Source of the DNA: Candidatus Omnitrophota bacterium
GTDB lineage: Bacteria > Omnitrophota > Omnitrophia > Omnitrophales > Aquincolibacteriaceae
Assembly: GCA_030698625.1 (NCBI GenBank)
Contig: JAUYMS010000044.1
Span: 30,898-94,897 of the forward strand
Direction of reading: 5' to 3'
DNA: 64,000 nucleotides
Shown here: one piece after another, positions 33,930 to 58,249 of the stretch
How the letters are laid out: each line of letters starts with the position of its first letter
How positions within the stretch are numbered: position 1 is the stretch's first letter
Position numbers and translations under genes: made by a program
The notes under the pieces: model-generated
What the model saw: the letters and a program-made list of their open reading frames with translations, nothing else
Databases searched by the model: none
Told to the model about the DNA's origin: nothing

Positions 33930-34493
33930 ATGCAGGAAATAGCGACAGATACCCTAGAGCGCGCCGGGGACGGCGACTTGCAGGCTTTCAATGAGATCTA
34001 TCGGTCTTCGGCCGGGTTTGTGTATAGCATTGCGCTCAGAATGGCCCGGAATACCGCGGATGCCGAAGAGATTACCCAGGATGTGTTTGTTAAAGCGTAC
34101 AAGAACTTAAAGGCCTATGAAGGGCGCTCATCGTTTAAAACATGGATTTACAGAATCGCCATGAACACCGCCATCAACTTTTGTAAAAAAAGGTCCGCTG
34201 AATTCAAAAAAAGAGAGCTCCGTGAACGTGAGCCGAGCCCCGGAGTTGTCAGTAACGAGGCTGAAAAAAACCTCTTTAAAGAAGATGCAGAGAAAAAGCT
34301 AGGCGAGCTTCTTGGCTGCCTCAATGAAGATCAGCGCGCCTGCATTCTGCTGAGGGAAATTGAAGGGTTGGATTACCGTCAAATTGCGGACGTCTTGAAA
34401 ATCGAGCTCAACACGGTCCGCTCCCGCCTGAAAAGGGCGAGAGAAGCGATGATCGCCTATGCAAGACAGGGAGGGGTGAAAGATGAACTGTGA
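33930..34493 (+). CDS. ECF (RpoE-like) RNA polymerase sigma-70 family factor
   Basis: 187 aa with sigma-70 region 2 (FVYSIALRMARNTADAEEITQDVFVKAY) and region 4 (DYRQIADVLKIELNTVRSRLKRAR). Confidence 0.85.
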   Translation: MQEIATDTLERAGDGDLQAFNEIYRSSAGFVYSIALRMARNTADAEEITQDVFVKAYKNLKAYEGRSSFKTWIYRIAMNTAINFCKKRSAEFKKRELREREPSPGVVSNEAEKNLFKEDAEKKLGELLGCLNEDQRACILLREIEGLDYRQIADVLKIELNTVRSRLKRAREAMIAYARQGGVKDEL

Positions 34494-34944
34494 TCAATTC
34501 AAAGACTCGTTGCTGACGGATTATGTGGATCGTGTCCTCGACCCTGAAAAGCAAAAAATAGCGGATGCCCACATCGGGCAATGCGCGGAGTGCCGCCGGC
34601 TTATTGCGGACCTGCGCACTGTGACGGCTGAGACCTTTGGGCAGGTCCGGGAGATCGAACCTCCTGCCCATGTCTGGGCAGGCATTGTAGAGCGCGTGCA
34701 GCCCTCGCCCGGATGGTTTGAGAAAGTGTGTGCTGTGTTGACGCTGCCGAGGTTGAGTATTGCGATTCCGGTGCTGGCGAGTCTTATGCTTTTCACATTC
34801 GTCCAGCTGCGGCAGCCCGAGGTGTCCTATGACATAACCCGGGCTTATTTAAGCCGCGAACTCGGCGGGGATTTCGGCGTCCTATCCAACGAGGACCTGG
34901 AGAACGGCAGTTTCGGCACGGTCATCGAAGACTTCTTTATGTAA
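34483..34944 (+). CDS. Anti-sigma factor (zf-HC2, single TM)
   Basis: Overlaps the sigma gene by 11 nt. HxxxCxxC motif (HIGQCAECRRL) and one TM helix. Confidence 0.7.
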   Translation: MNCDQFKDSLLTDYVDRVLDPEKQKIADAHIGQCAECRRLIADLRTVTAETFGQVREIEPPAHVWAGIVERVQPSPGWFEKVCAVLTLPRLSIAIPVLASLMLFTFVQLRQPEVSYDITRAYLSRELGGDFGVLSNEDLENGSFGTVIEDFFM

Positions 34945-34947
34945 TGA

Positions 34948-34977
34948 GGAACTTTTTGCACGGATGCGCTTGTCTAA
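34948..34977 (+). promoter_or_regulatory. Second sigmaE-type promoter GGAACTT-N17-GTCTAA upstream of the Spy/CpxP-like gene
   Basis: GGAACTTTTTGCACGGATGCGCTTGTCTAA is read from the sequence. It is followed by RBS AGGAGG and the ATG at 35005. Confidence 0.65.
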
Positions 34978-35004
34978 GTGGTGAAATTAAATAGGAGGTG
35001 TCAT

Positions 35005-35517
35005 ATGGAAACAGCAATCATAAAGCCGATGGGAATTTCAATAATGGTGTTAGCGCTGCTGATCGGGACGGGCTCCAATGCCTTTGCCATATATTCTGAG
35101 GAAAGCGGGCGGGGTGATAGGGCTCCCGGACAGTGGCAAGAGAAGATGAAAGAAAAAAGGGATAAGATGTTCGCGGAAATCGGATTGAGTGAGGAGCAGT
35201 TGCAGCAAATTGAGGCGAAGCGCGAGACAAAGATGGCAGATACAAGAGCACTGTATGGGCAGATGAGAGAGAAAAGGGAGGCCCTGCGTCGTGTCTTGGA
35301 GGCGCCCGAAACAGACCGTGCACAAGTTGATGTTCTGGTGAATGAAATCTCCGCATTACAGGCACAAAAGGTCCGTGCCCGGGTTGACAACATCCTTGAG
35401 ATTAAGGCAACCCTAACGCCGGAACAATTCGCCCAATTAAAAGCCAAGAGGGGTGAGATGCGGAAAGAACGCAAAGGCCAGTGGCGCCAGCACAAGGACG
35501 AAGCGAGCGAAGGTTAG
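35005..35517 (+). CDS. Spy/CpxP-family periplasmic protein (LTxxQ motifs)
   Basis: Signal peptide and repeated LSEEQLQQI / LTPEQFAQL LTxxQ motifs. The ATG at 35005 has a perfect RBS. Confidence 0.7.
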   Translation: METAIIKPMGISIMVLALLIGTGSNAFAIYSEESGRGDRAPGQWQEKMKEKRDKMFAEIGLSEEQLQQIEAKRETKMADTRALYGQMREKREALRRVLEAPETDRAQVDVLVNEISALQAQKVRARVDNILEIKATLTPEQFAQLKAKRGEMRKERKGQWRQHKDEASEG

Positions 35518-35580: not shown

Positions 35581-37296
35581 TTAAACCATCGAGTTTCCCA
35601 CCGACCGGATTAGCTGACCGCTTAGGCCCCGCTTCAACATCTCGGGAATCATCCCGCGGTTTACTTCGTAGAACGTAGGCGGCTCATAGGTGAGCCCTTG
35701 GCGGAGGCGCCGGTCTTCCTTACGAAGCTTGGCTAAGATAACGCGGCCGACAATCGGAGTCGCAAGTCGGGCTTTCAGCCCGAATTCCTTTTTGATGTCA
35801 ATTAGAACTGTGTTGATTCGTGCAACGAGTTTCGGGTTCCTTTTGAACCACTTCCGGGCTGCCCAAAGTGCTCCCGCATACTTCACCGGCAGCTCGTGCC
35901 CCTCGTAGGCAAAACGGGCCTGAATTCTTTTATTCGGGTGGTTCTTGTAGCGCTTCCATCCCGCAAGCGTTGTGCGGGCAATGCGCAGGACACTCGGCCC
36001 GTTGACTTCGAAATCGCGGCTGAAGGCATCCACAATAAATTTGGATTCCTCTCCGTTTTTGATGTGAGGGTGCTTGTAATTAAATTTTAGCTGACCGTGA
36101 ATGTCGGCCTCGTCAAACTCGTCTTTTTCCCAATCCAGTATCGTTTTATCGGCCGTGTGTTCGGCATGCAGGGGTGTGCCCGGAATGGGGGTATAGAGCA
36201 TAAACTGATGGAAGTCGGTGTCGTGGGCCACGGCATATTCAATGACTTCCTTGATATTTTCGGGCGTATGGTTCTCAAGGCCGATAATGCTCGAGCCGAG
36301 AAGGCGGATGCCGTGCGCGTGGTAAAAACGCACCAGGTCGAACGTGTTAATCCCTGACAATTTTTTGTATTGGCTTTCCTTGCCTTCAAGTCCCATCCAT
36401 ACCCACGAGATACCCAGCCCCACCAATTGCTCGATCGTGTAGGACTGAAGCACCCTCGCCGAACTAAAAATGTATAGCGACCAGGATTTTCCGTGTTCCT
36501 CCATCAATTCGAGAACACGAAGGGCCCGTTTGCGATGCAGCAGAAAATTTTCGTCCATGACAAAGAAAGACCGGACTTCTAATTCTTTCTCAAGACCGCA
36601 CATGACATTGAAGAGTTCATCTCCGGTCTCATAGAAATTTACAAATTTGCCCTTTCCGCCGAACATGGCCGATGTGGCGCAAAAATTACACCCCATGGGA
36701 CAGCCTACGGAGGGGATCAGTGTCGCGGCTACTTCTCCTTTTTTTCTACGAACATTCAGCCCCATCGTGCGGGTCTCCAAGCCGGAAAGAATGAACGGGT
36801 GCCGTATCGGCTGAGAGGTATCTTCGCCCAAAAATTCGCGGAACCAGCGAACACCGTCTCCTCGGGCGATGTGATCGGCATCAATGCGCTCGTCAATAGC
36901 CGTCATGTTGGCAATGTGCCCGCCCACGACGATCGTGGCTTTGGGCTGGTATTTGCGGATCAGGCGGCACATCTCCTGCACCTTGCCGAGGTTCGGCATG
37001 ATGGAGCTGATCCCGATGATGTCATAGGGGACATTGCGGATTTCATCCTTGAAGCGATCCAAGGTGGGGAAATCCAGCAGGGTACAGGGCGGATTAATAT
37101 TGCATTGAATGAGCATCAGGCCCCAGGAGCGGTGAAACATCCGCAGGGAAAAGGGGCCCTGAGTGCGTGTGACCTGGTTGTGGTAGAGCTCCATCGGATT
37201 AATGGCCCGGCTGCCGTAGGCATCATCCTGCGCATAAGGTCCAAAAACGCTGCTCAGTAATATCCTGGATTGGGCTCCCGGCTTACTCATGATCAT
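35581..37296 (-). CDS. B12-binding domain-containing (class B) radical SAM enzyme
   Basis: 571 aa with an N-terminal cobalamin-binding Rossmann-like domain, the radical SAM CxxxCxxC motif (CPMGCNFCAT) and a long C-terminal extension. Confidence 0.8.
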   Translation of the reverse strand: MIMSKPGAQSRILLSSVFGPYAQDDAYGSRAINPMELYHNQVTRTQGPFSLRMFHRSWGLMLIQCNINPPCTLLDFPTLDRFKDEIRNVPYDIIGISSIMPNLGKVQEMCRLIRKYQPKATIVVGGHIANMTAIDERIDADHIARGDGVRWFREFLGEDTSQPIRHPFILSGLETRTMGLNVRRKKGEVAATLIPSVGCPMGCNFCATSAMFGGKGKFVNFYETGDELFNVMCGLEKELEVRSFFVMDENFLLHRKRALRVLELMEEHGKSWSLYIFSSARVLQSYTIEQLVGLGISWVWMGLEGKESQYKKLSGINTFDLVRFYHAHGIRLLGSSIIGLENHTPENIKEVIEYAVAHDTDFHQFMLYTPIPGTPLHAEHTADKTILDWEKDEFDEADIHGQLKFNYKHPHIKNGEESKFIVDAFSRDFEVNGPSVLRIARTTLAGWKRYKNHPNKRIQARFAYEGHELPVKYAGALWAARKWFKRNPKLVARINTVLIDIKKEFGLKARLATPIVGRVILAKLRKEDRRLRQGLTYEPPTFYEVNRGMIPEMLKRGLSGQLIRSVGNSMV

Positions 37297-37489: not shown

Positions 37490-38473
37490 ATGGGTCTACA
37501 TACGATGGCAAACGCTGCTCAAGTCACATCAAAAATCACGGATCGAATTGACGCGATTACGAAGATCCCGGACGACATTTATAAAACAGTTCTTCCCGTA
37601 CCTCGGTCGGTCAAAATTGAATTAACGGCGCGATGCGATCTCGCCTGCTTTTTCTGTGCCTCAAAAATGAAGCTGCGTCCGAAGAAGGACATGGAGTGGG
37701 AGCTCTTTACACGGCTGCTCAAGGAGATGCGGCTCGCGGGGGTGGACGAGATCGGCCTCTTCTATCTAGGGGAATCGTTTCTATATCAACGCCTTGAAGA
37801 AGCCATACGGTATGCGAAAAAGGAATGTAAGTATCCGTATGTTTTTTTGACGACTAACGGCAGGACGGCCACAAAGAAGCGGGTCTATGAATGCGCTCGT
37901 GCGGGCTTAGACAGCCTCAAGTTCAGCTTTAACAATGCGGACCGGGCGCAGTTTAAAGATGTCACCGGCGTGGACTCCTACGATGAGGTCGTGAGGAATC
38001 TCCGGGATGCACGGGCCGCTGTAGAACAGGTCGCAATGGAAACGGGGCATCGCTGCGGGTTGTATGCGAGCAGTATTTTGTACGATGGGGAGCAAAAGGA
38101 TCGCATGGATGATTCGATCCGGCCGCTCTTGCCGTTGCTTGACGAACATTATTTTCTGCCTCTCTATAATCAAGCCGGATTCACTGCCGGTTCACGGGGC
38201 ACTAAGGCCGTTGCCGGAAACGTGGGGCGCGTCGGGGCTTTGCGGGCACCCTTGCCGTGTTGGGCCGTCTTCACCGCCGGCCATATTACCTACGACGGCT
38301 ATTTAAGCGCCTGCTGCTTTGATCATGACGGCCGTTTCAATATGGGAGATCTGAAGGAAATGCCTTTTACGGAGGCTTGGAACAGTCAGGCGTTTCAGGA
38401 ACTTCGCCGCAGCCATCTGAAAAAAGACGTCCGGGGCACGGCTTGCGAGGCATGCATCATCTATCAAGAGTAA
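37490..38473 (+). CDS. Radical SAM enzyme with a C-terminal SPASM/twitch-like Cys-rich domain
   Basis: CDLACFFC CxxxCxxC motif near the N-terminus; C-terminal CWAVF...CCFDHDG...CEAC cysteines. Confidence 0.75.
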   Translation: MGLHTMANAAQVTSKITDRIDAITKIPDDIYKTVLPVPRSVKIELTARCDLACFFCASKMKLRPKKDMEWELFTRLLKEMRLAGVDEIGLFYLGESFLYQRLEEAIRYAKKECKYPYVFLTTNGRTATKKRVYECARAGLDSLKFSFNNADRAQFKDVTGVDSYDEVVRNLRDARAAVEQVAMETGHRCGLYASSILYDGEQKDRMDDSIRPLLPLLDEHYFLPLYNQAGFTAGSRGTKAVAGNVGRVGALRAPLPCWAVFTAGHITYDGYLSACCFDHDGRFNMGDLKEMPFTEAWNSQAFQELRRSHLKKDVRGTACEACIIYQE

Positions 38474-41582: not shown

Positions 41583-41924
41583 ATGAAAATCGTCACGGAT
41601 AAAATTACGGTTTCAGAATTAAAGAAAATGTCGGCACGCTTCGGCAATATGGTGAAGGCGGTCGTGGATATCGAAAAAGAGCGTGTGGCCGTTGATGCGG
41701 AACTCCATTCGGATTTAGAAGCGCTGCTTCTCAGTGAGGGCTCTAAGCAGACTGAACTTTGGGGAATAAACTTTTATCCGGACCTCGATGGCGGGGATTT
41801 TATGGAGTTTGATTCCATGATTAATATCAGGCCTTCTCAAAGCAATCACAGCCGCGGGGTCGATAGCCCTCAAACGCAAAAGAAAATCAAAGATATTATT
41901 GCCGAAAGGGTTGACAGGTCATGA
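41583..41924 (+). CDS. DUF5674-like small protein
   Basis: 113 aa; VKAVVDIEKERVAVDAELHSDLEALLLSEGSKQTELWGINFYP resembles DUF5674 consensus members. The call rests on recall only. Confidence 0.45.
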   Translation: MKIVTDKITVSELKKMSARFGNMVKAVVDIEKERVAVDAELHSDLEALLLSEGSKQTELWGINFYPDLDGGDFMEFDSMINIRPSQSNHSRGVDSPQTQKKIKDIIAERVDRS

Positions 41925-42253
41925 CACAGCACCGGGAACTTGCGGCAGGCCGATGGAGCCGGTTCAGTTTCGCGGAAGCGATGGCCAACATCGGCAGCGA
42001 AGTGGAACGGGCCATGAAATGGCGCGCCAAGAAGAATCCCCAATACTCAGAGCTCGCATTGCAACGGGCGCTTGAACTTATCCAGTTGACTTTAAACAGC
42101 ACCCGCCAACTTCCGCGCTTAAAGGAGACGGCACGTGTCCGTGAGGCCCTGATCGACTATTTTTATGGTGAAAATGAATATCACTCCACCGACGAAGCCT
42201 GGAGCAGATATTTCACCCAGTTCACACTCGCAGCCCGTCCGCATGTTTTATAG
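41921..42253 (+). CDS. Hypothetical protein (110 aa, alpha-helical)
   Basis: ORF overlapping the previous stop by 4 nt, within the operon; no recognised domain. Confidence 0.4.
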   Translation: MTQHRELAAGRWSRFSFAEAMANIGSEVERAMKWRAKKNPQYSELALQRALELIQLTLNSTRQLPRLKETARVREALIDYFYGENEYHSTDEAWSRYFTQFTLAARPHVL

Positions 42254-42367
42254 CAACCGGTTTCTGCGCAGATCCTTCTTTCTAAGGAAGCGCCATTCGT
42301 GTCTGTCACACGAACTAATACGACCATCATTAAAAACACAACAGGCAAAAGACAAGGCAGGTGCACG

Positions 42368-43279
42368 ATGAGACTTCACGGGCTTGGGATCACGCTCATA
42401 ATATTTATGCTTCTAATGGGGCTATCTCCCGCGCAGTTGCCGGCCGGGCAACAGGAAGGCGCGGCGGTCATGACCGTGTTCGGCGACGCCGTGAAAGCGG
42501 AATACGATGACGCCGGCAGGCTTACTTCGGCCGAGGATGCGCTCGGGAACCGTACGCAGTATCGATATGACGAGCAAGGCAGGGTAATCGCCGTGACCGA
42601 TCCTATGGGCGCGACCTCGCGCATGGCCTATGATGATGAGGGCCGAATGATCGCCGCAGAAGATGCGTCCGGGAGCCGCTGGAAGTGGACCTATGACGAG
42701 AAGGGGCGCATTACGTCTTCGGCCGATCCCACCGGGCAGAGCACGCTCACATTCTACGATGATGCTAACCGCAAAATAACGATTACGGATGCGGCGGGCG
42801 CGTCTACGACTTATGAATACGATAGGGCAGGACGCATGGTGGCCGTAATCGATGCTACGGGGCGCACCACGCGGACAAGCTATGATGCCGCAGGCCGCGT
42901 GACGAGCGTGACGCATCCAGACGGAAAACGCACCGACGTTACTTACGATGCGGCAGGTCGCGTGACGGAAGTGCGGGACCTCGAAGGCCGTGCGATGAGC
43001 TATGAGTACGATGCAGCAGGTCGTGTGCAGAGCATGGCGGATGCCGGCGGCGCTACGATCGCATGGGAATACGACAAGGCCGGGCGGGTTGCGGGCATGA
43101 AAGACGCACAAGGCCGGGCCCTCAATACTGAATACGATGCCGCGGGCCGGATGCTTGCGAGCGAAGATGCCGAAGGCCATAGAATGACATACGAATACGG
43201 CAAGGACGGGCAGCTTGAAGCCGTTGTTGATACCGAAGGTAAGCGAATAAGCTTGAGGGCGGGGGACGGGCAATCATGA
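42368..43279 (+). CDS. Short secreted YD-repeat (RHS-repeat) protein
   Basis: Signal peptide (MRLHGLGITLIIFMLLMGLSPA), then about 12 tandem 21-aa YD repeats (xYxYDxxGRxxxxxDxxG). No RHS core or toxin domain. Confidence 0.8.
   Translation: MRLHGLGITLIIFMLLMGLSPAQLPAGQQEGAAVMTVFGDAVKAEYDDAGRLTSAEDALGNRTQYRYDEQGRVIAVTDPMGATSRMAYDDEGRMIAAEDASGSRWKWTYDEKGRITSSADPTGQSTLTFYDDANRKITITDAAGASTTYEYDRAGRMVAVIDATGRTTRTSYDAAGRVTSVTHPDGKRTDVTYDAAGRVTEVRDLEGRAMSYEYDAAGRVQSMADAGGATIAWEYDKAGRVAGMKDAQGRALNTEYDAAGRMLASEDAEGHRMTYEYGKDGQLEAVVDTEGKRISLRAGDGQS
42470..43250 (+). repeat. Tandem 63-bp coding repeats (YD repeats)
   Basis: Periodic TACGATGCCGCAGGCCGCGTGACG-like units. They generate the spurious antisense ORFs 42422..43273 and 43000..43647. 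Confidence 0.7.
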
Positions 43280-43818
43280 GCCGTCGCCACACATTGGCCG
43301 GTTTTTTGTTCCTGTATTGGATAATTGCCGCGGCGGTCCCTCCGGCGTTTTCTGACGGCGTCGAATCCGCGATTGATTCGGTTATCGACGCAGCTGCCGC
43401 GGCAGCCGATTCGGTCGTTAAAGCCGCCGAAAATGCGGTTTCGTCCGCATCCGCCCCCGCACCCTTTGGAGCCGGTCCCGGCATGATGATGCCGCAGATG
43501 ATGCCGCAGACGATGCCGCAGACGATGACGCCGATGATGCAGCCGTTCGCTAGTCCGATGATGATGCCGCAAATGATGCCGCAGATGGTGCCGCAGACGA
43601 TGACGCCGATGATGCAGCCGTTCGCTAGTCCGATGATGATGCCGCAAATGATGCCGTCATCTGGTTCTCAGGGCACGGGTGGAACCGGCAATTCAAAAGA
43701 TCCCTTCCAAAAGACAGACGCCATCAACCGCGCTGACAAAAGCAGCCGCAGCGGCGCAGACCCACGCTCACTGCAAGATACGGGCCGCGATCGCGGGTCG
43801 AAAGAAAGTAGAGAATAG
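43276..43818 (+). CDS. Secreted Met/Pro/Gln-rich repetitive protein (MMPQ repeats)
   Basis: Signal peptide, an Ala-rich helix, then MMPQMMPQTMPQTMTPMMQPFASPMMMPQMMPQ repeated. It overlaps the YD gene stop by 4 nt. Confidence 0.6.
   Translation: MSRRHTLAGFLFLYWIIAAAVPPAFSDGVESAIDSVIDAAAAAADSVVKAAENAVSSASAPAPFGAGPGMMMPQMMPQTMPQTMTPMMQPFASPMMMPQMMPQMVPQTMTPMMQPFASPMMMPQMMPSSGSQGTGGTGNSKDPFQKTDAINRADKSSRSGADPRSLQDTGRDRGSKESRE
43521..43670 (+). repeat. 75-bp tandem direct repeat (2 copies) encoding TMTPMMQPFASPMMMPQMMPQMVPQ
   Basis: GACGATGACGCCGATGATGCAGCCGTTCGCTAGTCCGATGATGATGCCGCAAATGATGCCG occurs at 43521 and 43596. Confidence 0.8.
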
Positions 43819-43861: not shown

Positions 43862-44554
43862 ATGGCTAAGGAAATAATTTTATTGATTGAGGATGAGAAG
43901 AACATTGTCGAGCTTGTGAAATACAACCTCGAACAGCAGGGCTATCGGGTGAACACTGCTGTTAACGGGAATGAGGGCGTACGGAAGGCCCAAAAGGAAA
44001 AACCCGATCTGGTGATCCTTGATCTTATGCTGCCCGAGCTCGATGGCATTGAGGTTTGCAAGATCCTCAGACACAACGACAAGACCGCTTCGATTCCCAT
44101 TATTATGCTTACTGCCAGAAGCGAAGAAGCTGATAAGATCGTCGGCTTGGAGCTGGGTGCCGATGACTATGTGACGAAACCGTTCAGTCCGCGAGAACTC
44201 GTAGCGCGTGTCAAGGCCGTCTTGAGACGGATCGGCGGTGATGGCGGGACGAAGGTGTTGAAGTCAGGCGGGCTCGAGGTAGATATCGAAAAGCATATTG
44301 TAACGGTGAAAGGTAAACGAGTTGATCTCACATCGAAGGAATTCGAATTGCTGAAGTGTCTTCTGGATGTAAAGGGGAGGGTGTTGTCTCGCGACCAGCT
44401 TTTGACCAAGGTGTGGGGTTATGAGCCGTCGCTTGAGCTTGAAACCCGCACTGTGGATATGCATATCGGCCAGCTGCGCAAGAAGATCAAATCAGAGTCT
44501 GAGAAAATCATTACCGTTAAGAACGTCGGTTATCGTTTCGCGATAGAGGAATAG
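43862..44554 (+). CDS. phoB: Phosphate regulon response regulator (OmpR/PhoB family)
   Basis: REC domain plus winged-helix trans_reg_C (VWGYEPSLELETRTVDMHIGQLRKKI). It sits upstream of phoR and the pst operon. Confidence 0.85.
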   Translation: MAKEIILLIEDEKNIVELVKYNLEQQGYRVNTAVNGNEGVRKAQKEKPDLVILDLMLPELDGIEVCKILRHNDKTASIPIIMLTARSEEADKIVGLELGADDYVTKPFSPRELVARVKAVLRRIGGDGGTKVLKSGGLEVDIEKHIVTVKGKRVDLTSKEFELLKCLLDVKGRVLSRDQLLTKVWGYEPSLELETRTVDMHIGQLRKKIKSESEKIITVKNVGYRFAIEE

Positions 44555-44557
44555 CGC

Positions 44558-46354
44558 GTGTTCAGATGGATAGGTAAGCGTTTCGGAAGACGGCTGGCTT
44601 TTACATATGTCGCGGTCTTTACCCTTGTCTTTGCCGTAACCGGCTTTGTCGTTTCGCGTTCGCTCGAAGACCGCACATTGTCGCGGTTAAAGGAGACGCT
44701 CGGCCATCAAACGGAACTCCTTGCGCATATCGTCACTTCCCGAGATGTCACTCTTCCGGATCCGGCCGACATCCACTCCCGTATCGTCGAGTTGGGCAAG
44801 AATATTCCGTTGAGGATCACCCTTGTCGACGCGACAGGGCGTGTGCTGGGTGATTCGCTGCGCACGCTCCGCGAACTGAATGAAATGGATAACCATGCCA
44901 ACCGGCCGGAAATTAAGGCCGCTCTCGGCGGCCGTGCAGGTTCCAGTGTTCGCTATAGCGTTACGCTGCACAGACAGATGTTTTATCAAGCCTTGCCCCT
45001 TAGAATAGACGGCGACGTCGTAGGGGTCTTGAGGACGGCGATTCCTCTAACTCAGGTCGAAGAGACCCTAGCTGCTGTCCGGCGGCCTATCATCCTCGGG
45101 TCCCTCGTCGGAATATTCTGCACGCTAATACTGGGCTTTTTCTTGAGCCGCTATGTGACACAGCGTGTGAGGCAAATGACGGAGGCATCGCGCTCCTTCG
45201 GCAAAGGTGATTTTGGTGTGCGGATTTCTGTTGATGCCGAGGATGAACTAGGCGTTCTTGCAGGAACCATGAATCGAATGGCTTCTTTGCTCAGAGGAAG
45301 GATGAGTGAAATCGAAGGCGAAAGAATTAAGGCCGGCGCAATCCTCGATAACATGGTCGAAGGAGTCATCGCGGTCGATCGTAACCGGCATGTCCTCATG
45401 GTCAACCCCAATGTGGAGAGGATGTTTCACCAAACCCAAGCCTCTATTAAAGAGAGAACCCTGATCGAATTGACCAAGAATATTCAATTGGATAATATTA
45501 TGGCCCGCGCCATCGATGAACATTCTATCAATTCGGAAGAAGTGACCGTAGCTGACGAAGAAAGTAGGGTCTTGCAGGCCAACGCTGTCGGCGTACCCTG
45601 CAACGATGACCAAGCTGTCGCGGGCATACTTGTTCTTCACGACATCACGGAGATCCGCAAGCTCGAAAAGATGCGGCGTGAATTTGTTGCCAACGTGTCC
45701 CACGAGCTAAAGACGCCCCTGACATCCATTAAAGGCTTTATTGAAACCCTGCAGACGGGTAGCGCCGTGGATGCCGGCAGCAGCCGGCGGTTTCTCGGGA
45801 TCATGGAAGAAGATGCAAACCGCCTAGGGCGGCTTATCGACGATATTCTCGACTTGTCAAAAATAGAATCCGGCGCCCTGCCGCTTAAACGCGAGGCGCT
45901 GGATATAGGTTCTGTGGTCACGGAGGCCCTCTCGATGCTGGAGCACAGACTGCAGTTGAAAAAGATCAAAGTTGAAAACCGCATTCCTGAGGCACCGCTG
46001 CCGCCCGTAGCGGCAGACCGTGATAAGCTCATGCAGATCCTTGATAATCTCTTGGATAATGCCCTCAAGTTTAACCGCGAAGGCGGGCGGATAGTCTTAG
46101 ATGCCTCAGTTCATGCGAACTATTTACAACTAGCCATCAGCGACACAGGGCCTGGGATTCCTGCCGAAATGATCCCGCGGCTATTCGAGAGATTTTTCCG
46201 TGTCGATAAGGGACGGTCCCGCGAGATGGGCGGCACGGGCCTCGGCCTCGCGATCGTGAAAAATCTGGTACAATTGCACGGCGGAACCGTCGCCTGCGAA
46301 AGCAAACCCGGCCAGGGCTCCACCTTTACCTTTACCCTCCCGTTGGCAAGGTAG
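44558..46354 (+). CDS. phoR: Phosphate regulon sensor histidine kinase
   Basis: GTG start 4 nt after the phoB stop. TM, HAMP, PAS, HisKA (SHELKTPLTSI) and HATPase_c (GGTGLGLAIV) domains. Confidence 0.85.
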   Translation: MFRWIGKRFGRRLAFTYVAVFTLVFAVTGFVVSRSLEDRTLSRLKETLGHQTELLAHIVTSRDVTLPDPADIHSRIVELGKNIPLRITLVDATGRVLGDSLRTLRELNEMDNHANRPEIKAALGGRAGSSVRYSVTLHRQMFYQALPLRIDGDVVGVLRTAIPLTQVEETLAAVRRPIILGSLVGIFCTLILGFFLSRYVTQRVRQMTEASRSFGKGDFGVRISVDAEDELGVLAGTMNRMASLLRGRMSEIEGERIKAGAILDNMVEGVIAVDRNRHVLMVNPNVERMFHQTQASIKERTLIELTKNIQLDNIMARAIDEHSINSEEVTVADEESRVLQANAVGVPCNDDQAVAGILVLHDITEIRKLEKMRREFVANVSHELKTPLTSIKGFIETLQTGSAVDAGSSRRFLGIMEEDANRLGRLIDDILDLSKIESGALPLKREALDIGSVVTEALSMLEHRLQLKKIKVENRIPEAPLPPVAADRDKLMQILDNLLDNALKFNREGGRIVLDASVHANYLQLAISDTGPGIPAEMIPRLFERFFRVDKGRSREMGGTGLGLAIVKNLVQLHGGTVACESKPGQGSTFTFTLPLAR

Positions 46355-46361
46355 CCCTTCC

Positions 46362-46390
46362 TTACCTAATTTTTACCTGATCTTCACGAG
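46362..46390 (+). promoter_or_regulatory. Candidate Pho box: TTACCTA-N4-TTACCTG direct repeats with 11-bp periodicity
   Basis: CTTACCTAATTTTTACCTGATCTTCACGAG lies about 50 nt upstream of the first small ORF and its RBS, and heads the porin-pst gene string. Confidence 0.4.
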
Positions 46391-46440
46391 TCCTTGAAGT
46401 GCCTCGCCTAGAATTTCAATCAACTGAAAGGAGGCCGCAC

Positions 46441-46665
46441 ATGTTATTTGCACGAAAACTCATGATTCAGGGGCTCAGGAAGCAGATGACTCTTTTAGAT
46501 CGGATTTCGGAAAGTCTTGAGAGTGACATTACACCCCACGACCCCCTAAGGCGTTGCTATGCTCATGAAATTTCGAAGGTGAGTAGTAACCTGAGAGCGC
46601 TAAGGGAAAAGAAGCGTGAATACGGCGTTTATCTGAGCCCTGAACCTTACACGGATTTTACATGA
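46441..46665 (+). CDS. Small hypothetical protein (paralogue A, about 74 aa)
   Basis: RBS AGGAGG and ATG at 46441. It shares the L..RLS..LES..DI.PL....YA..E..S.LR.LR pattern with the next ORF. Confidence 0.45.
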   Translation: MLFARKLMIQGLRKQMTLLDRISESLESDITPHDPLRRCYAHEISKVSSNLRALREKKREYGVYLSPEPYTDFT

Positions 46666-46708: not shown

Positions 46709-46948
46709 ATGAGTCAGAGAGAATACTTAATCACCGGAATTCGCGATCAGAAAAACAAGCTGGAGAGGCTTTCGAATGTTCTTGAATCCCAGTCCGACAT
46801 CGATCCGTTAAATTGGCAAGTTTACGAGTATGCAACCAGGGAGGTGGAAAGCAGCCTCAGGAAACTTAGAAAAATGGCAGCTGCCGAATTCATTAAATGC
46901 AACTACGACAATACAGGCACCGTAACTCAAGAGGAGTGTAAAGAATGA
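46709..46948 (+). CDS. Small hypothetical protein (paralogue B, 79 aa)
   Basis: Similar to 46441..46665. Its stop overlaps the porin start (ATGA). Confidence 0.45.
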   Translation: MSQREYLITGIRDQKNKLERLSNVLESQSDIDPLNWQVYEYATREVESSLRKLRKMAAAEFIKCNYDNTGTVTQEECKE

Positions 46949-49408: not shown

Positions 49409-51670
49409 ATGACGGCTCAATCCCGTTTTCAAACGGCAGCGTCGACGCTCTTTCTGGATCGTTTTATGACTCGCTTTATCGCGGTGGGGGGTATTTCGGT
49501 CATTGCTGCTGTTCTGGGGATCTTCCTCTTTATTGCTTGGCAGACCTTACCGCTGTTTCAAGGCGCTAAGATCCGCCGAGCAAGCAGCGTCGCGCTTCCC
49601 GAAGGGGACTATGCGGTACTCGGTGCTGACGAATGGGGCGAGTTGCCCTTCGTCGTGGATCATGCGGGTGCGATATCCTTCATCGACCTCGTAGGGAACA
49701 GGGAAGTCATCTCGGTCTATCCCGGCAGGGAACTTAATAAAGACATTACGGCTTTTTATTACAACCGCATCAAGCAGGAAATAATTTACGGCACCTCTGA
49801 CGGGCATTTCTTTATCACCGGTATTCATTTCCGGCCTTTTTATGAGGCGAATTCCCGCCGTATCGACGTCAAAACAGAAACCGGACCCCTTATGCGGATC
49901 GGTCTGGAAGGCGTTCCTGTGGAGCGAATCACTTACGGGGCCGGGAACAATAAGATGCTGGTTGCTGCTTTGCAGACGCGGGCCGGCAAGGCCGTTATCC
50001 ACACTACGACGCTGGTCAAGGAAGCGAGTCTTTTCGGGGCCGGGCAGTTTATTACAGCGACGCGTTTTGAGATTACGCAGACCTTTTCAAGCGAGCCGAG
50101 CGGGATTCTTGTCAATTCACAGGGTGACGGTATCGTCATTTCTACGGCCGAGGGGAAGATCTATTACTTCGCGGAATCGGGAGGCAAGTTAAAGCTGCAC
50201 CAAGTCTTCGAGCCGTTTGACGATACCGCCGACCGCGAAATTTCGTCGATGGATTATCTGCTGGGTGAAGTATCCGTGGTGCTTACGAACCCGCAGGGGA
50301 TCAACCGGATTTTCAGCTTGTATGTGCCGGCGGGAAACATCGAGCGAGTGTTCGGTCCGACCAAGGAGTTCCGGGCTTTAGACGGCCCGGCCGCATTTTA
50401 TAGCGCTAGTCTCAGAAATAAGGCCTTTCTTATCGGCCGTGACAATCTGGCGTCGCTCCGGTACGGGACTACCGAGGTCGTTCGATGGGAAGAACGGCTG
50501 CCTTTCAGAATTCGTCATGCCGTTGTGGGGGGCAAGTACGACCGTCTTTTCTTTCTCGATTGGGAAAACCAACTTCATATTTATATGCTCAGTGATCCGC
50601 ACCCCGAAACTAGCTACCGGGCTTTTTTCGGTAAGCTTTGGTATGAAGGATATACAGAGCCGGCCTATGAATGGCAGTCTACCGGAGGTACCGACGATTT
50701 CGAACAGAAGCTTTCGCTTGTTCCGTTAATTATCGGAACCCTGAAAGGAACTTTCTTTGCGATGCTGTTCGCATTACCCATGGCGATCCTGGGCGCTCTG
50801 TACACATCTCAGTTTGCGCATCCCCGTTTCAAACTACTGGTCAAACCCATGATGGAGATCATGGCCTCATTGCCTTCCGTCGTGCTGGGATTTCTGGCGG
50901 CGCTATGGCTGGCGCCTCTCATTGAGGCGCGGGTTCCGTCGATTCTTCTCATGGTTATTCTAATCCTCGGGTCTTCTTTTCTGTTCGGGGCCTTTTGGAC
51001 GTCGCTTGATATGCGGCACCGAAAGTGGATTCGGCCCGGCTACGAATGGATCGCGCTGATACCGGTATTATTTGTGGCGTCCTGGGTCGGCTGGCAGCTC
51101 GGACCCCTGTTGGAGAAGGTGCTATTCGTCACAACAGACCCTAATACGGGATTAAGAATCGCCGACTTCAGATTGTGGTGGCCCGAGGTAACGGGGGCTT
51201 CGTTCGAGCAGCGGAATTCATTGGTTGTGGGTTTTATGATGGCTTTCGCAGTTATCCCGATCATCTTTACCATCTCGGAGGATTCGCTTTCAAATGTGCC
51301 TAGGGCTTTGACCTCCGGTTCCCTTGCCTTAGGCGCCAGCCGCTGGCAGACGGCCATCGGTGTGGTGCTGCCGACGGCCTTTCCGGGAATTTTTTCGGCA
51401 GTCATGGTGGGCTTGGGCCGCGCGGTCGGCGAGACGATGATCGTGGTTATGGCGACGGGGAATACCCCGGTAATGGATATGAATATCTTTTCCGGTATGC
51501 GTACCCTGTCGGCAAACGTTGCCGTTGAGCTTCCCGAAGCGCCTTATCTGGGCACCCTCTACCGCAGTTTGTTTCTGGGCGCGACGGTGTTATTTGTGAT
51601 GACATTCACGGTCAATACGATTGCCGAAATCATTCGCCAAAGGCTTCGCGAAAAATACAAGACGGTATAA
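49409..51670 (+). CDS. pstC: Phosphate ABC transporter permease PstC, long form with a ~400-aa N-terminal extracytoplasmic extension
   Basis: C-terminal 6-TM ABC permease with the EAA-like loop; a large insertion follows the first TM helix. Confidence 0.85.
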   Translation: MTAQSRFQTAASTLFLDRFMTRFIAVGGISVIAAVLGIFLFIAWQTLPLFQGAKIRRASSVALPEGDYAVLGADEWGELPFVVDHAGAISFIDLVGNREVISVYPGRELNKDITAFYYNRIKQEIIYGTSDGHFFITGIHFRPFYEANSRRIDVKTETGPLMRIGLEGVPVERITYGAGNNKMLVAALQTRAGKAVIHTTTLVKEASLFGAGQFITATRFEITQTFSSEPSGILVNSQGDGIVISTAEGKIYYFAESGGKLKLHQVFEPFDDTADREISSMDYLLGEVSVVLTNPQGINRIFSLYVPAGNIERVFGPTKEFRALDGPAAFYSASLRNKAFLIGRDNLASLRYGTTEVVRWEERLPFRIRHAVVGGKYDRLFFLDWENQLHIYMLSDPHPETSYRAFFGKLWYEGYTEPAYEWQSTGGTDDFEQKLSLVPLIIGTLKGTFFAMLFALPMAILGALYTSQFAHPRFKLLVKPMMEIMASLPSVVLGFLAALWLAPLIEARVPSILLMVILILGSSFLFGAFWTSLDMRHRKWIRPGYEWIALIPVLFVASWVGWQLGPLLEKVLFVTTDPNTGLRIADFRLWWPEVTGASFEQRNSLVVGFMMAFAVIPIIFTISEDSLSNVPRALTSGSLALGASRWQTAIGVVLPTAFPGIFSAVMVGLGRAVGETMIVVMATGNTPVMDMNIFSGMRTLSANVAVELPEAPYLGTLYRSLFLGATVLFVMTFTVNTIAEIIRQRLREKYKTV

Positions 51671-51682
51671 GGTCAGATTCCA

Positions 51683-53380
51683 ATGGAACAGGCAGTCCCT
51701 AAAATGAAATATTTTGGAACAGGCAACAAGCCTACCGGAGAGCCCTTCGTGTGGTGTGCTGCGATGGGTCTTACATTAGGGCTGACTCTGATCGTCTCTC
51801 TGATGGGGCTGATCCTGGTCAAAGGTGTGGCCGTCTTTTGGCCGGACCGCGCGGTGGTACTGGAGCTTAAGCCCGGGAGTACGGCCCGTCTCGGAGGGAG
51901 TGAATACCTGGCCGGTGTAGTCACAAAGGAACAAAAAATCTTACGACGAGCCAAAGACATATCCGGGGGGGAAGACGCGGGCAGGGAGCGGATGGAATGG
52001 CAGCTATTTCTCGGCAACAAGGATATTTACGGTATTAGTTTCAAGTATGTGGATTACGCCGACATCAGCCGGACGGCCTATCCCGAAGACCTCATACGTA
52101 TCGAAAGAATGGAATATGGGGACGCGTTTGGGTTCCCGGTCTATCTGGAAATTGCCGGTGAAGATCCCATCGAGTTCAGTTCGGCAGCGTTCCTGCCGCG
52201 GCTGCATGCGCTCGTCAGGGATGTTAGTCACCGATGGGATGAGATCCGGAAAATCGAACGTGACGAAATCGGTGCTATTAATCTTAAAATAGAAAGATTA
52301 CGCCTGCGTAAGAAAAAGTTAGACCGCGATGTGGCGCAAAACGCCGATGCGCTTGAAGAAGCCGCTCTCAAGTTGACCGATCTTCAGAACCGCTACAACG
52401 TTCTGGCGGCCGAGGCAACGGATCTGAGGCAGCAGCAATCAAGAGACGCGCTCGTCTATCAGTTGGCGACAGATCAGAAAAAAAGGCTGCCGGTCGGAGA
52501 AGTTGTGCACTTTTATTTTCCCAATCGCTTGAATTTTATCGACCGGGTAGGGCTTTTTTTTCATCGCCTCTGGGTATTTTTGAGTGAAACGCCACGCGAG
52601 GCGAATACCGAAGGCGGCGCTTTTCCGGCTATCTTCGGCACGTTCGTCATGACAGTATTGATGAGTGTTGCCGTCATGCCGTTCGGTGTGCTTGCGGCTA
52701 TTTACCTGCGGGAATATGCCAAACAGGGGATCTTGGTGCGCTCGGTTCGCATTGCGGTCAACAACCTGGCGGGTGTGCCCTCCATCGTATTCGGGGTTTT
52801 CGGACTGGGCTTCTTCGTCTATTTCGTCGGCGGCAGCATTGACCGCTTGTTTTACAGCGATGCACTTCCGACACCGACTTTCGGCACCGGCGGAATCTTC
52901 TGGGCGTCGCTTACTTTGGCCCTCCTGACAGTGCCGGTAGTTATCGTGGCAACTGAGGAGGCGTTAGCGTCCGTTCCGCGGGGCGTGCGTGAGGGATCTC
53001 TGGCGTGTGGTGCCTCGAAATGGCAGACGATCCTCAACGTTGTTCTGCCTGCATCGGCGCCGGGAATTCTCACCGGGCTGATCCTGGCGATGGCGCGCGG
53101 TGCGAGCGAGGTCGCCCCCCTGATGCTGGTGGGCGTCGTCAAGCTCGCGCCGACGCTTCCGGTAGACGGTCTTTTTCCCTTTTTTCACTTGGAACGAAAA
53201 TTCATGCACTTGGGATTTTATATCTATGACCTCGGATTTCAATCACCCGACTCCGAGGCCGCAAAACCCATGGTTTTTGCCGCCACACTCCTGCTCATAG
53301 CGCTGGTTGTGGTTTTGAATCTTGGGGCTGTTCTTGTCAGGCAGAGATTGAGAAAAAAAATCATGGCAGGGGCATTTTAA
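51683..53380 (+). CDS. pstA: Phosphate ABC transporter permease PstA, long form with a coiled-coil periplasmic insertion
   Basis: 565 aa with a C-terminal PstA-type permease core. Confidence 0.85.
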
Positions 53381-56173: not shown

Positions 56174-58249
56174 ATGTCCCAAAGTGTGTTAGAAGAGAAG
56201 GCGTGGGTTAAATTGCCCTGGCCGCTCGCCTGCCTGCTTACCGGAGCCGCGATGCTATGGGTCGCGGTCTTAGGCAATCCCCTCCAATTATCCGAAAACC
56301 AATGGTTTGATCAATGCCTGCGTTGGCGGCATCAGGCCGGATTGGCCCCATCTGTGGATGCGCGTCTTCTTCACTTGGATATTACGGGCAAGGATCTTGC
56401 CGGGCTTGCCAGCTTGGAGGACGAATACGAAGCCGCCGCGCGTTTGATTCGTGAGGCCTCAGCGCTTGGCGCAGAGCTTGTCGTCTTTGACGTGATTTAC
56501 GGCCGGGGTACTCCGGCCATGGGGGAACGTATCCTGCGCTCGATTCGCGAGAGTGCAGTGACTGTGGTGCTGGCCGAAGGCTACGGTGCAGACGCCAAGA
56601 AAGTTTCTTCTTTTCCGTATCTGGAGTCGCTGTACGCGCCGGCAGGACTTATCAATGTCTCGGCCGATGCCGACGGTGTTTACCGGCACTACCGTTATGT
56701 GCAGCGCGAAGGCGGCGACGCCGAGCCTTCGCTCGCGCTGGCGGCATACATGGCGCTTGAGGGGTTGCGCTGGCGCGAGGACGTTCGCTTGCCGCGCCCG
56801 GGCGTCCTGGAGTGGCAGGTGCTGTCGCCGGATGGTACCCAACGCGTCGCCAGACAATTAAAAGTCGCGGGCCCACAGCCGCTATTAGATTTTAGAAGCG
56901 GTTGGACGGCGACCGGCCCTGCCGCCATCCCTCATTTGCGTCTTGAAGATCTCTTCGCGCTTAGCGTCAACCGCGCGACACCCGATTCGCGGCCGCTGGC
57001 GGGAAAAGTCCTTTTCGTCTCTTATGCCGCATCCGGCGTTGTTGATTTTGGCGCCACGGCTTTCGGAGAAAATACCCCGCTCGTGAGTCTTCACGCCGTT
57101 GCGCTGAACGATCTCTTGCAGGAATCGCTTCACTCCCTTCTGCCTCGGTGGGCGGCCATGCTCACACTCCTCCTGACTCTGGCCATGCCCCTTGCGGCGC
57201 AGGGGATTGTCTCCGACAAGCTTCTGACCCTATTCTGGTTTCTCGGCGGCGTCACTGCGGCGGGGCTCAGTATGGGGTTTTTGCTGCGGACGCAGTGGGT
57301 GCTTCCCTTTGTTCTTTGGACCGTTTTGTGGACCGTGCTTTTTCTGGCCGAAATGTCGCGCCGTTACGGCCTAGTCCTGATCCGCCGCCTTCGGCTGCAG
57401 ATCACGATGGGCTATTACTTCTCTCCGCGCGTGATGGAAAAAGTCTTGGCCAATCCCGGGGCCATGGACCCGCAACACGTGCGTTTGACCGTTCTACTGA
57501 CCGACCTAAGGAATTTTACACCGCTCAGCGAAAAACTAGGCACTCGCGGCATCTTCGCTCTGCTTAACCAGGTTTTTGAAGTGCAGACGCAGGCGGTCAT
57601 GGCCGAAGACGCAAGCTTGGAACATTTTTTGGGGGACCAATTCCTCTGTTATTGGGGAGCGCCGGATCCGCAGCCTGATGCCGCCGAACGCGCCGTGCGA
57701 GGTGCCGTTGCTCTCATGCGGGCCATGGAAGAAATCAAAGGCACGCTGTCCGAGGAGATCCGTCAGCTGTTCGGTTACGGCGTCGCGCTGCATACCGGTC
57801 AGGCGATGATCGGCAATATCGGATCGGCTTTGCGCCTCGACTACGGCGTGGTCGGGGATCTCATCAACTCAACGGCCCGCGTGGAATCGCTGACCAAAGT
57901 CTACAAATTACCGTTCATCATGACTCGCGAAACATACGCAGCCCTTCACGAGCGTCCGCCTTACCGCGCGATCGATACGGTCCGTGTGGTCGGCAAGTCA
58001 ACGCCGCTGGAACTCATCGAGGTTCGCCACCCGTTCGGCGCCGCGTCCTTTGATGCCCTTGCGGCGGATTATGCGATCATCTACGAACGCTATCACTGCG
58101 GTGACTTTGAATCAGCGGCTCGCGGTTTTCTGGGCCTGGCCGAACGATTCGGCGACGGCGCCAGCCGGCTGCTTGCCGCCCGTTGCCGGGAATTTTTAAC
58201 CGAACCCCCCCGTGACTGGGATGGGATTTACCGATTTCAAGCCAAATGA
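56174..58249 (+). CDS. CHASE2-domain membrane sensor fused to a class III adenylate/guanylate cyclase domain
   Basis: N-terminal TM, an extracytoplasmic region of about 300 aa, three TM helices, and a C-terminal cyclase homology domain (LTVLLTDLRNFT...GDQFLCYWGAP...TGQAMIGNIGS...GDLINSTARVE). Confidence 0.8.
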   Translation: MSQSVLEEKAWVKLPWPLACLLTGAAMLWVAVLGNPLQLSENQWFDQCLRWRHQAGLAPSVDARLLHLDITGKDLAGLASLEDEYEAAARLIREASALGAELVVFDVIYGRGTPAMGERILRSIRESAVTVVLAEGYGADAKKVSSFPYLESLYAPAGLINVSADADGVYRHYRYVQREGGDAEPSLALAAYMALEGLRWREDVRLPRPGVLEWQVLSPDGTQRVARQLKVAGPQPLLDFRSGWTATGPAAIPHLRLEDLFALSVNRATPDSRPLAGKVLFVSYAASGVVDFGATAFGENTPLVSLHAVALNDLLQESLHSLLPRWAAMLTLLLTLAMPLAAQGIVSDKLLTLFWFLGGVTAAGLSMGFLLRTQWVLPFVLWTVLWTVLFLAEMSRRYGLVLIRRLRLQITMGYYFSPRVMEKVLANPGAMDPQHVRLTVLLTDLRNFTPLSEKLGTRGIFALLNQVFEVQTQAVMAEDASLEHFLGDQFLCYWGAPDPQPDAAERAVRGAVALMRAMEEIKGTLSEEIRQLFGYGVALHTGQAMIGNIGSALRLDYGVVGDLINSTARVESLTKVYKLPFIMTRETYAALHERPPYRAIDTVRVVGKSTPLELIEVRHPFGAASFDALAADYAIIYERYHCGDFESAARGFLGLAERFGDGASRLLAARCREFLTEPPRDWDGIYRFQAK

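Follow-up and report, generated by a model that had tools for sequence, protein, structure and literature searches.

A short YD-repeat protein and its overlapping methionine-rich partner upstream of the pho cluster in an uncultured Omnitrophota lineage

We have examined a 64,000-nt stretch of contig JAUYMS010000044.1, from a metagenome-assembled genome (MAG) of a Candidatus Omnitrophota bacterium (the whole stretch is called the window below), in which two overlapping open reading frames (ORFs) lie just upstream of the phosphate-regulation gene phoB. The first encodes a protein with twelve YD repeats behind a predicted signal peptide, which is a member of the known YD-repeat superfamily outside the Rhs container class; the second encodes a protein rich in methionine, proline and glutamine that is in no known family. 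Our preferred reading, which we put forward tentatively, is that they constitute a lineage-restricted cassette of two envelope proteins exported by the Sec pathway, rather than a toxin system or the remains of an rhs gene.

The two genes and their products

The YD protein belongs to the YD/RHS-repeat proteins (PF05593/TIGR01643), with scores above the curated cut-offs of both profiles: Pfam RHS_repeat PF05593 matched six double-repeat stretches (E 2.8e-64, 212.9 bits, cut-off 22) and TIGR01643 likewise six stretches (E 9e-62, 203.2 bits, cut-off 15.8). Every full unit of the array is exactly 21 aa long, with no insertions or deletions, and a degenerate thirteenth unit follows. The unit consensus is xxTxYEYDxAGRVTAVxDAxG, in which Y7 and G21 are invariant while D8, G11, R12 and D18 are each present in 11 of the 12 units. 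At the DNA level the units are only 35-62% identical to one another, and so we consider the array to be old, maintained at the protein level and free of recent duplication. A regular-expression search for PxxxxDPxGL, the RHS core motif, found no match in the YD protein or in a six-frame translation of the window. The same 64 kb hold no other YD-rich ORF or frame bearing the YD motif, and Pfam and NCBIfam searches found no PAAR, VgrG, toxin or immunity gene with the YD protein or elsewhere in the window. On the YD protein itself these collections returned RHS_repeat and YD-shell families only, and its neighbours are a DUF5674 gene, a hypothetical gene, the Met-rich ORF and phoB. The initial annotation, which had described about 12 YD repeats after a signal peptide with neither an RHS core nor a toxin, is borne out in each of these respects.

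Translation is taken to start at the ATG at 42368 rather than at an upstream GTG at 42299 because the former is preceded by a Shine-Dalgarno-like sequence (Table 1), and the gene call on an independent assembly, described below, likewise gives 303 aa. Read by eye, the N-terminus has the form MRLHG-LGITLIIFMLLMGL-SPA/Q (the slash marks the predicted cleavage), with a charged n-region, a 14-residue hydrophobic core and S-P-A at positions -3 to -1. Residues 1-19 have an AlphaFold pLDDT (predicted local distance difference test score) below 50.

The coordinates first given for both ORFs and for the four nucleotides that they share were exact, as the ORF list and the sequence confirm. The Met-rich gene starts within the ATGA that ends the YD gene and has a purine-rich stretch upstream of its ATG; from this arrangement we take the two genes to be translationally coupled. 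Its N-terminus, again read by eye, is MSRRH-TLAGFLFLYWIIAAAV-PPAFS/D, with the n/h/c layout of a Sec signal, and the proposed coupling to a signal-peptide-bearing ORF of Met/Pro/Gln repeats stands. Methionine makes up 24 of the 180 residues and 15% of the mature form, with 23 of them concentrated among the 58 residues of a core at 69-126 (40%). The core is uncharged, contains neither histidine nor cysteine and carries six MxxM and three MxM motifs, and residues 27-68 before it have a net charge of -5. An alignment-free AlphaFold model has one helix at residues 3-20, another at 28-58, and no secondary structure over residues 59-180, where pLDDT is 50-60. This is consistent with a mature protein of one helix and about 120 intrinsically disordered residues.

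The DNA encoding the core is a tandem repeat with a 75-bp period, in which TRF recognises 2.3 copies at 96% identity. It had been described as a perfect duplication, which overstates the case slightly: three mismatches separate copies 1 and 2 (72/75 identical), and the longest exact run at an offset of 75 is 68 nt. The 75-nt unit is itself composed of a 12-nt sub-repeat, ATGATGCCGCAG, encoding MMPQ and present in about 13.8 copies. Both periods are multiples of three, such that the reading frame is kept, and the core may have grown through slippage from the 12-nt unit to the 75-nt unit.

Both genes look real, with no sign of a pseudogene fragment in their sequence. Over 11,176 nt the Logan assembly of SRR13727534 agrees with the window at every position, before it ends within the Met-rich repeat at 43543, and the Logan gene caller predicts the same 303-aa YD ORF and a downstream ORF from the same ATG as ours. 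The position of that contig end indicates that the 75-nt repeat breaks short-read assembly, which leaves its copy number in the MAG unverified. Proteins encoded near the pair are exact matches to entries in the series MDP3921188-197 (locus tags Q8R76_103xx), from a 122-kb Candidatus Omnitrophota contig. By accession number, six proteins fall between MDP3921190 and MDP3921197, equal to the six ORFs counted from the hypothetical gene to the porin, and the NCBI annotation pipeline (PGAP) has therefore probably called both genes. A codon log-odds coding score, for which 21 confident genes from the window served as training set, gave the YD ORF 0.256 in its annotated frame, against -0.066 or less elsewhere, and the Met-rich ORF 0.127, against 0.036 or less. 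GC content at third codon positions (GC3) is 0.64 for the YD gene and 0.67 for the Met-rich gene, matching the host genes (0.63), and the local rise in GC at the pair is consequently attributed to amino-acid composition and not to foreign origin. No flanking direct repeats, integrase, transposase or other mobile-element genes were seen around the pair. The suggestion that the YD ORF stands alone and does not derive from the disruption of an rhs gene is thus upheld by the lack of YD remnants throughout the 64 kb, by host-like GC3 and by the clean register of the array.

The Met-rich protein is an orphan. No match was found in a word-indexed set of 5.8 billion proteins, in an exhaustive phmmer search of 1.84 billion representatives, or in Pfam, NCBIfam, PADLOC or the PDB. 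For the YD protein, the best matches are about 33% identical, which is generic similarity at the level of the repeat, and the short YD matches that we inspected were for the most part pieces of rhs genes that are larger or have decayed, or had atypical tails. Five had signal-like N-termini, and the contexts of three of these were examined: one (P0079) is part of a split rhs gene, a second (P0111) is followed by more YD coding sequence, and the third (P0084, 515 aa) adjoins a subtilase, such that none was retained as an analogue. Two further matches (P0035 and P0090) have Arg/Pro-rich C-terminal tails, which are possibly the products of frameshifts. Exact look-ups found neither of our proteins, although missing self-matches do not mean that the proteins are unannotated.

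The initial annotation had proposed a search for co-occurrence of a short YD protein with a Met-rich partner, and no second such pair emerged from homologue, synteny or metagenome searches. Omnitrophota relatives with a PhoB 70-72% identical to that of the window retain the order phoB-phoR-(small ORF)-porin(-pstSCAB-phoU), and what precedes their phoB is either CofH-like radical S-adenosylmethionine (SAM) genes or a sulfate transporter, with no YD ORF in any of them. Since other genes occupy the position in these relatives, the pair is best described as having been added, in this lineage specifically, ahead of a pho cluster that is conserved. A scan of genome contigs with PhoR returned only distant loci, and the Omnitrophota literature does not mention YD or Rhs proteins.

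Relationship to Rhs shells

AlphaFold2 modelled the YD protein from a 31-sequence alignment with a pLDDT of 89.4 overall and about 98 over the repeat array, and a predicted template modelling score (pTM) of 0.73. In the model one sheet of 25 successive antiparallel strands spans residues 41-295, and residues 1-30 are disordered. When this model was compared with the PDB using Foldseek, it matched segments of large shells, namely the Rhs cores of type VI secretion systems, Tse15, Tse5, the Tc BC complex and teneurins, with E-values down to about 1e-21 and TM-scores of about 0.6 when normalised by the query and of 0.1-0.2 when normalised by the target; engineered single-layer OspA sheets were also among the matches. 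A sequence search aligned residues 36-283 to residues 497-745 of RhsA without large gaps. On the model, the YD protein is equivalent to the regular central section of an Rhs shell, roughly one quarter of the whole, and is without the plug, the closing turns, the protease core and the cargo.

Thus the YD protein shares its repeat family and hairpin sheet with the shells of RhsA (7q97), Tse15 (8uxt), Tc BC (4igl) and the teneurins, but at about one quarter of their length it cannot close into a container. It also differs from them in lacking an N-terminal plug, the aspartyl-protease core with its PxxxxDPxGL motif and a C-terminal toxin. PAAR, VgrG and TcB are likewise missing from its context, and its export would use a Sec signal peptide. 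The NF041261 RHS_core profile scores 129 bits against a cut-off of 2000, aligning only over positions 464-681 of 1261, and we have rejected the Rhs core or toxin-container class for this protein on that score together with its single sheet and its lack of core motif, toxin, PAAR, VgrG and plug.

A further comparison can be made with short Rhs proteins of 2-16 YD repeats, which have been described as toxin-diversification cassettes or orphan toxin cassettes (bioRxiv 10.1101/2024.02.26.582050). Their repeat number is like that of the YD protein and their sheet is too small to envelop cargo, but their C-terminal effector domain is present in full, and in some cases a complete rhs gene lies nearby (same source), whereas the YD protein has a predicted signal peptide and no effector, and the window contains no rhs gene. 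One further family, DUF4595 (PF15283), to which Pfam ascribes about 200 residues and a 'porin-like fold', gave a weak but nearly full-length match (residues 108-281 to profile positions 2-196 of 202, E 1e-5); membership was rejected at 26.0 bits against a gathering cut-off of 34.2.

Readings of the pair

Under the reading that we tentatively favour, the YD protein would be an open, curved antiparallel sheet of twelve YD hairpin pairs, unable to close into a container, that presents a surface for binding or scaffolding, either within the periplasm or on the exterior of the cell; we regard it as such a surface because closure, plug, protease core and cargo are all missing. The Met-rich protein would be a fast-evolving and mostly disordered chain, comprising an acidic helix, an uncharged Pro/Gln-rich core that is 40% methionine and a charged tail, which acts through its composition as a flexible, thioether-rich polypeptide and is probably bound by the YD sheet or placed beside it. 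A candidate property of such a chain would be the buffering of Cu(I)/Ag(I), or else of oxidants. While the integrity of the genes, the repeat architecture, the predicted fold, the lack of Rhs core features, the orphan status of the Met-rich protein and the absence of the pair from relatives come directly from the analysis, we infer export, complex formation and any biochemical role, and several considerations weigh against our interpretation. Both signal peptides were judged by eye only, and translational coupling is the whole of the case for a complex. The curvature of the modelled, isolated YD sheet may simply copy that of Rhs shells. Neither protein matched itself in the collections searched, so very close orthologues could be hidden, and the pair is known from one MAG and one Logan contig of the same sequence. 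Neither conservation nor the gene neighbourhood points to a function for the pair. Finally, the Met-rich ORF is an orphan of low complexity that could be spurious, and its last 54 codons have no coding signal over the other frames.

This last doubt amounts to an alternative in which the Met-rich ORF is a chance open frame in slippage-prone DNA and the YD protein alone is made. Besides the orphan status and the weak coding signal of the final 54 codons, it draws on a 215-aa open frame on the opposite strand over the repeat, and on the breakage of short-read assembly there, which makes both copy number and frame uncertain. However, the ATGA overlap, the purine-rich stretch upstream of it and an N-terminus with the textbook n/h/c layout of a signal peptide (by eye) all speak against it, as do repeat periods in multiples of three; the annotated frame has the best coding score overall, and two independent gene callers appear to call the ORF (Logan and, from the accession count, NCBI). 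We consider a chance frame distinctly unlikely. We find it very improbable that the YD ORF is, for its part, the decayed remnant or an orphan module of an Rhs-type polymorphic toxin locus. Such an origin would fit the fragmentary nature of most short YD matches in the databases (P0079 and P0111, with the atypical tails of P0035 and P0090) and the existence of short Rhs proteins with 2-16 repeats (bioRxiv 10.1101/2024.02.26.582050), but the known short cassettes retain a C-terminal toxin that the YD protein lacks. It is further opposed by the gene's own Shine-Dalgarno sequence and predicted signal peptide, by twelve units in an unbroken 21-aa register with structural residues conserved, by host-like GC3 without flanking repeats or mobile-element genes, and by a window devoid of toxin, core motif, PAAR, VgrG, immunity gene or other YD sequence.

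The composition of the Met-rich protein has suggested more specific roles, of which Cu(I)/Ag(I) binding was the one originally advanced. In that case it would be a periplasmic metal binder of the kind exemplified by the Mets motifs of CopC, PcoC, CrdA and Ctr1, and the pair a metal-homeostasis module. Behind a predicted signal peptide, six MxxM and three MxM motifs and 23 methionines in 58 residues accord with this, and there is a precedent for a His-free, Met-only Cu(I) site in the secreted HpCrdA, which has no histidine or cysteine and for which Cu(I) binding by a Met-rich loop with the motif MXXMPGM has been proposed (PMC9182242). An LTXXQ 'Metal_resist' protein is also encoded, with an extracytoplasmic function (ECF) sigma factor and anti-sigma factor, about 7 kb upstream. 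The MXXMPGM sites of CopC, PcoC and HpCrdA resemble the Met-rich core in their MxxM spacing, in their thioether-only, exported character and in lacking histidine and cysteine (PMC9182242); but there the motif is a loop in a folded cupredoxin-like domain, while here it lies in a 58-residue repeat, predicted to be disordered, with neither a homologous fold nor a copper gene in its context. Indeed, copA, cop, cus, pco, sil and multicopper-oxidase genes are all missing from the annotation of the 64 kb, and the two-component system next to the pair is of PhoB/PnpS type and not CopRS or CusRS: the regulator scores 261.6 bits as PhoB against 184.4 as cztR_silR_copR, and the kinase lies above the PnpS cut-off (410 against 400). 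No similarity to known copper proteins, the CopC/PcoC/CusF/PcoE/SilE group included, was detected in Pfam, NCBIfam, the PDB or the 1.84 billion proteins, and the copper hypothesis leaves the YD partner without a role. The MMPQ tract, moreover, recurs in proteins related neither to ours nor to each other. A DNA-pattern scan of Joint Genome Institute (JGI) metagenomes for MMMPQMMP yielded 50 loci, in proteins as diverse as flagellar-switch-like, phage-like and eukaryotic coiled-coil ones, together with some additional Met-rich ORFs. These proteins have no link to metals, and none of the loci had a neighbouring YD ORF; MMMPQMMP was accordingly rejected as the marker of a family or of copper proteins, being a recurrent low-complexity tract. 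Overall, with the MxxM motifs present and HpCrdA as a precedent, copper or silver binding is plausible, but the motif is not diagnostic and the gene context lends no support, and we think such a role unlikely.

Other extremely Met-rich ORFs from metagenomes are unrelated to ours. Methionine accounts for 36-37% of the open frames in L020 (Ga0070684_100099775) and L057 (Ga0209188_1000558), and for 14% in L038 (Ga0214471_10024199), where Met/Gly/Pro repeats occur together with a signal peptide. Such ORFs could merit attention as a class of exported proteins rich in methionine.

It is quite improbable, in our estimation, that the Met-rich protein is instead a sacrificial sink for oxidants, in which reactive chlorine or oxygen species would oxidise the periplasmic methionines and a methionine sulfoxide reductase would then restore them. 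The model here is MrpX of Azospira suillum, a small protein with a signal peptide and 20% methionine that is oxidised by hypochlorite and for which recycling by the putative methionine sulfoxide reductase YedY was proposed (PMC4436054). Both are small, Met-rich, low-complexity proteins with a signal peptide, and methionine makes up 15% of the mature form of ours and 40% of its core. Yet mrpX sits in a yedYZ-mrpX operon under SigF/NrsF (PMC4436054), while the window contains no yedYZ/msrPQ or msrA/B gene; MrpX has 44% charged residues, in contrast to an uncharged core rich in proline, glutamine and threonine, and no sequence similarity between the two was detected. Nor does the notion that the pair are substrates of upstream radical SAM enzymes find support, since those genes lie 4-7 kb away, one on the opposite strand and the other separated by five genes. 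Peptide-maturase families were rejected for the latter, the rSAM/SPASM gene at 37490-38473, because all NCBIfam scores were far below cut-off, and it sits beside an ELM1-like gene; the B12-radical SAM gene on the opposite strand likewise has no peptide-maturase match that passes the cut-off.

Two other explanations look beyond composition. The pair might be members of the Pho regulon, encoding exported proteins induced by phosphate starvation and co-transcribed with phoB-phoR, given that they lie on the same strand with 46 nt and no terminator-like site before the phoB start, and that a complete cluster of phoB, phoR/pnpS, porin, pstSCAB and phoU follows. A Pho-box-like direct repeat of 11-bp period (TTTAC-N6-TTTAC-N6-TTCA) is conserved after phoR and ahead of the small-ORF/porin/pst unit in four Omnitrophota genomes, those of the window and of loci L010, L012 and L014, and is likely to be where PhoB binds in this phylum. 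No Pho box was found upstream of the YD gene, however, and unrelated genes occupy the position of the pair in relatives, which makes Pho membership highly unlikely. The remaining possibility, which we regard as a long shot, is a split and non-toxic Rhs 'container plus unfolded cargo', where an exported, open YD half-shell would hold or chaperone a separate disordered, thioether-rich client in the envelope, perhaps through edge-to-edge oligomerisation of half-shells. Were this true, it would mean that YD sheets bind disordered polypeptides autonomously, outside toxin delivery.

Genomic setting and significance

Two inverted sequences flank the pair (Table 1). The inverted repeat in the gap before the YD gene could be an operator or an RNA hairpin; it has no T-run after it and was not called by a terminator scan. 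The perfect palindrome beyond the Met-rich gene is unique in the window even when up to three mismatches are allowed, with 0.11 occurrences expected by chance, and it was not visible in the short stretches available upstream of phoB in L010, L012 and L014. It lies at the border with the pho cluster and might serve some regulator as an operator.

Table 1. Features of the pair and its surroundings (window positions unless a relative's locus is named)
Feature	Coordinates	Strand	Details
ECF sigma factor, zf-HC2-type anti-sigma factor and CpxP/Spy/ZraP-like LTXXQ 'Metal_resist' periplasmic protein	33930-35517		
B12-radical SAM gene	35581-37296	minus	
rSAM/SPASM gene	37490-38473		
Function-unknown gene; ELM1-like gene; faintly ResB-like membrane protein			In this order between the rSAM/SPASM and DUF5674 genes
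DUF5674 gene	41583-41924		Overlaps the next gene
Hypothetical gene	41921-42253		110 aa; followed by a 114-nt gap
Inverted repeat TTCGTGT-CTGTC-ACACGAA	42296-42314	+	In the 114-nt gap
Shine-Dalgarno-like AAGGCAGG	42354-42361	+	6 nt before the YD-gene ATG; from sequence
YD-only protein gene	42368-43279	+	ATG start, 303 aa; mature protein about 30 kDa, pI 4.7
Predicted Sec-type signal peptide, MRLHGLGITLIIFMLLMGLSPA/Q	42368-42433	+	Residues 1 to about 22; sequence inspection
YD array, 12 units of 21 aa (63 nt)	42485-43240	+	Residues 40-291; register and consensus
ATGA start/stop overlap	43276-43279	+	From sequence
Met/Pro/Gln-rich orphan gene	43276-43818	+	ATG start, 180 aa; mature protein about 16 kDa; followed by a 46-nt gap
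Predicted signal peptide or signal anchor, MSRRHTLAGFLFLYWIIAAAVPPAFS/D	43276-43353	+	Residues 1-26; sequence inspection
Acidic, Ala-rich predicted helix	43357-43449	+	Residues 28-58; single-sequence AlphaFold, pLDDT about 60-70
Met-rich core, 12-nt MMPQ sub-repeat in 75-nt unit MMMPQMMPQTMPQTMTPMMQPFASP	43483-43656	+	2.3 copies of the unit
Ser/Gly/Asp/Arg/Lys-rich tail, predicted disordered	43657-43815	+	Residues about 128-180; pI 9.6
Perfect 16-bp palindrome TTGTATGATCATACAA	43829-43844	.	Between the Met-rich stop and the phoB start
phoB	43865-44554		
phoR/pnpS	44558-46354		
Pho-box-like repeat TTACC-N6-TTACC-N5-TTCAC	46360-46390		
Pho-box-like repeat in relatives	L010 about 6715-6760; L012 about 10005-10040; L014 about 9900-9935		
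Two small paralogous ORFs	46399-46665; 46709-46948		88 aa; 79 aa
Porin_5, pstS, pstC, pstA, pstB, phoU			In this order after the small ORFs

The sigma factor, anti-sigma factor and LTXXQ protein listed first in Table 1 comprise an envelope-stress module that is the sole metal- or stress-related element near the pair. On the other side, the two small tandem ORFs between phoR and the porin are 40% identical over 52 residues and match no family; the start of the porin gene falls within the second. A small ORF also occupies this position in relatives, of 77 aa in L014 and 50 aa in L012, and in the one comparison made, that of the 77-aa ORF of L014 with the 79-aa ORF of the window, no similarity could be detected. 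The PstC-like and PstA-like permeases (49409-51670, 753 aa, and 51683-53380, 565 aa) are much longer than their L014 counterparts (315 and 325 aa), and with the BPD_transp_1 domain C-terminal in both, large N-terminal extensions are implied. Further afield, at 56174-60558, genes for a CHASE2-adenylate/guanylate cyclase (691 aa) and a caspase-like CHAT-domain protein (770 aa) overlap by 4 nt and may encode a sensor-protease pair. Genes for FecR-domain proteins (15039-16007 and 19871-20788) lie amid histidine kinases, a GGDEF response regulator and a YgjP-like metallopeptidase, in a region dense in signalling functions with no evident link to the pair.

To our knowledge, YD/Rhs repeats are known almost entirely as closed toxin shells, or as the shells of teneurins around a C-terminal domain. 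The weight of the present case is limited by its occurrence in a single uncultured lineage, and it may be seen as a modest curiosity. Nevertheless, a free-standing, exported sheet of twelve YD repeats would show that the repeat can act as an independent module for binding or scaffolding, and it would be a minimal model for the folding and curvature of YD sheets. The Met-rich protein, for its part, would illustrate a growth resembling de novo origin, in which an exported disordered protein expands by nested slippage from 12 nt to 75 nt; and, if it does bind Cu(I) or scavenge oxidants, it would represent a new, His-free solution to that task.

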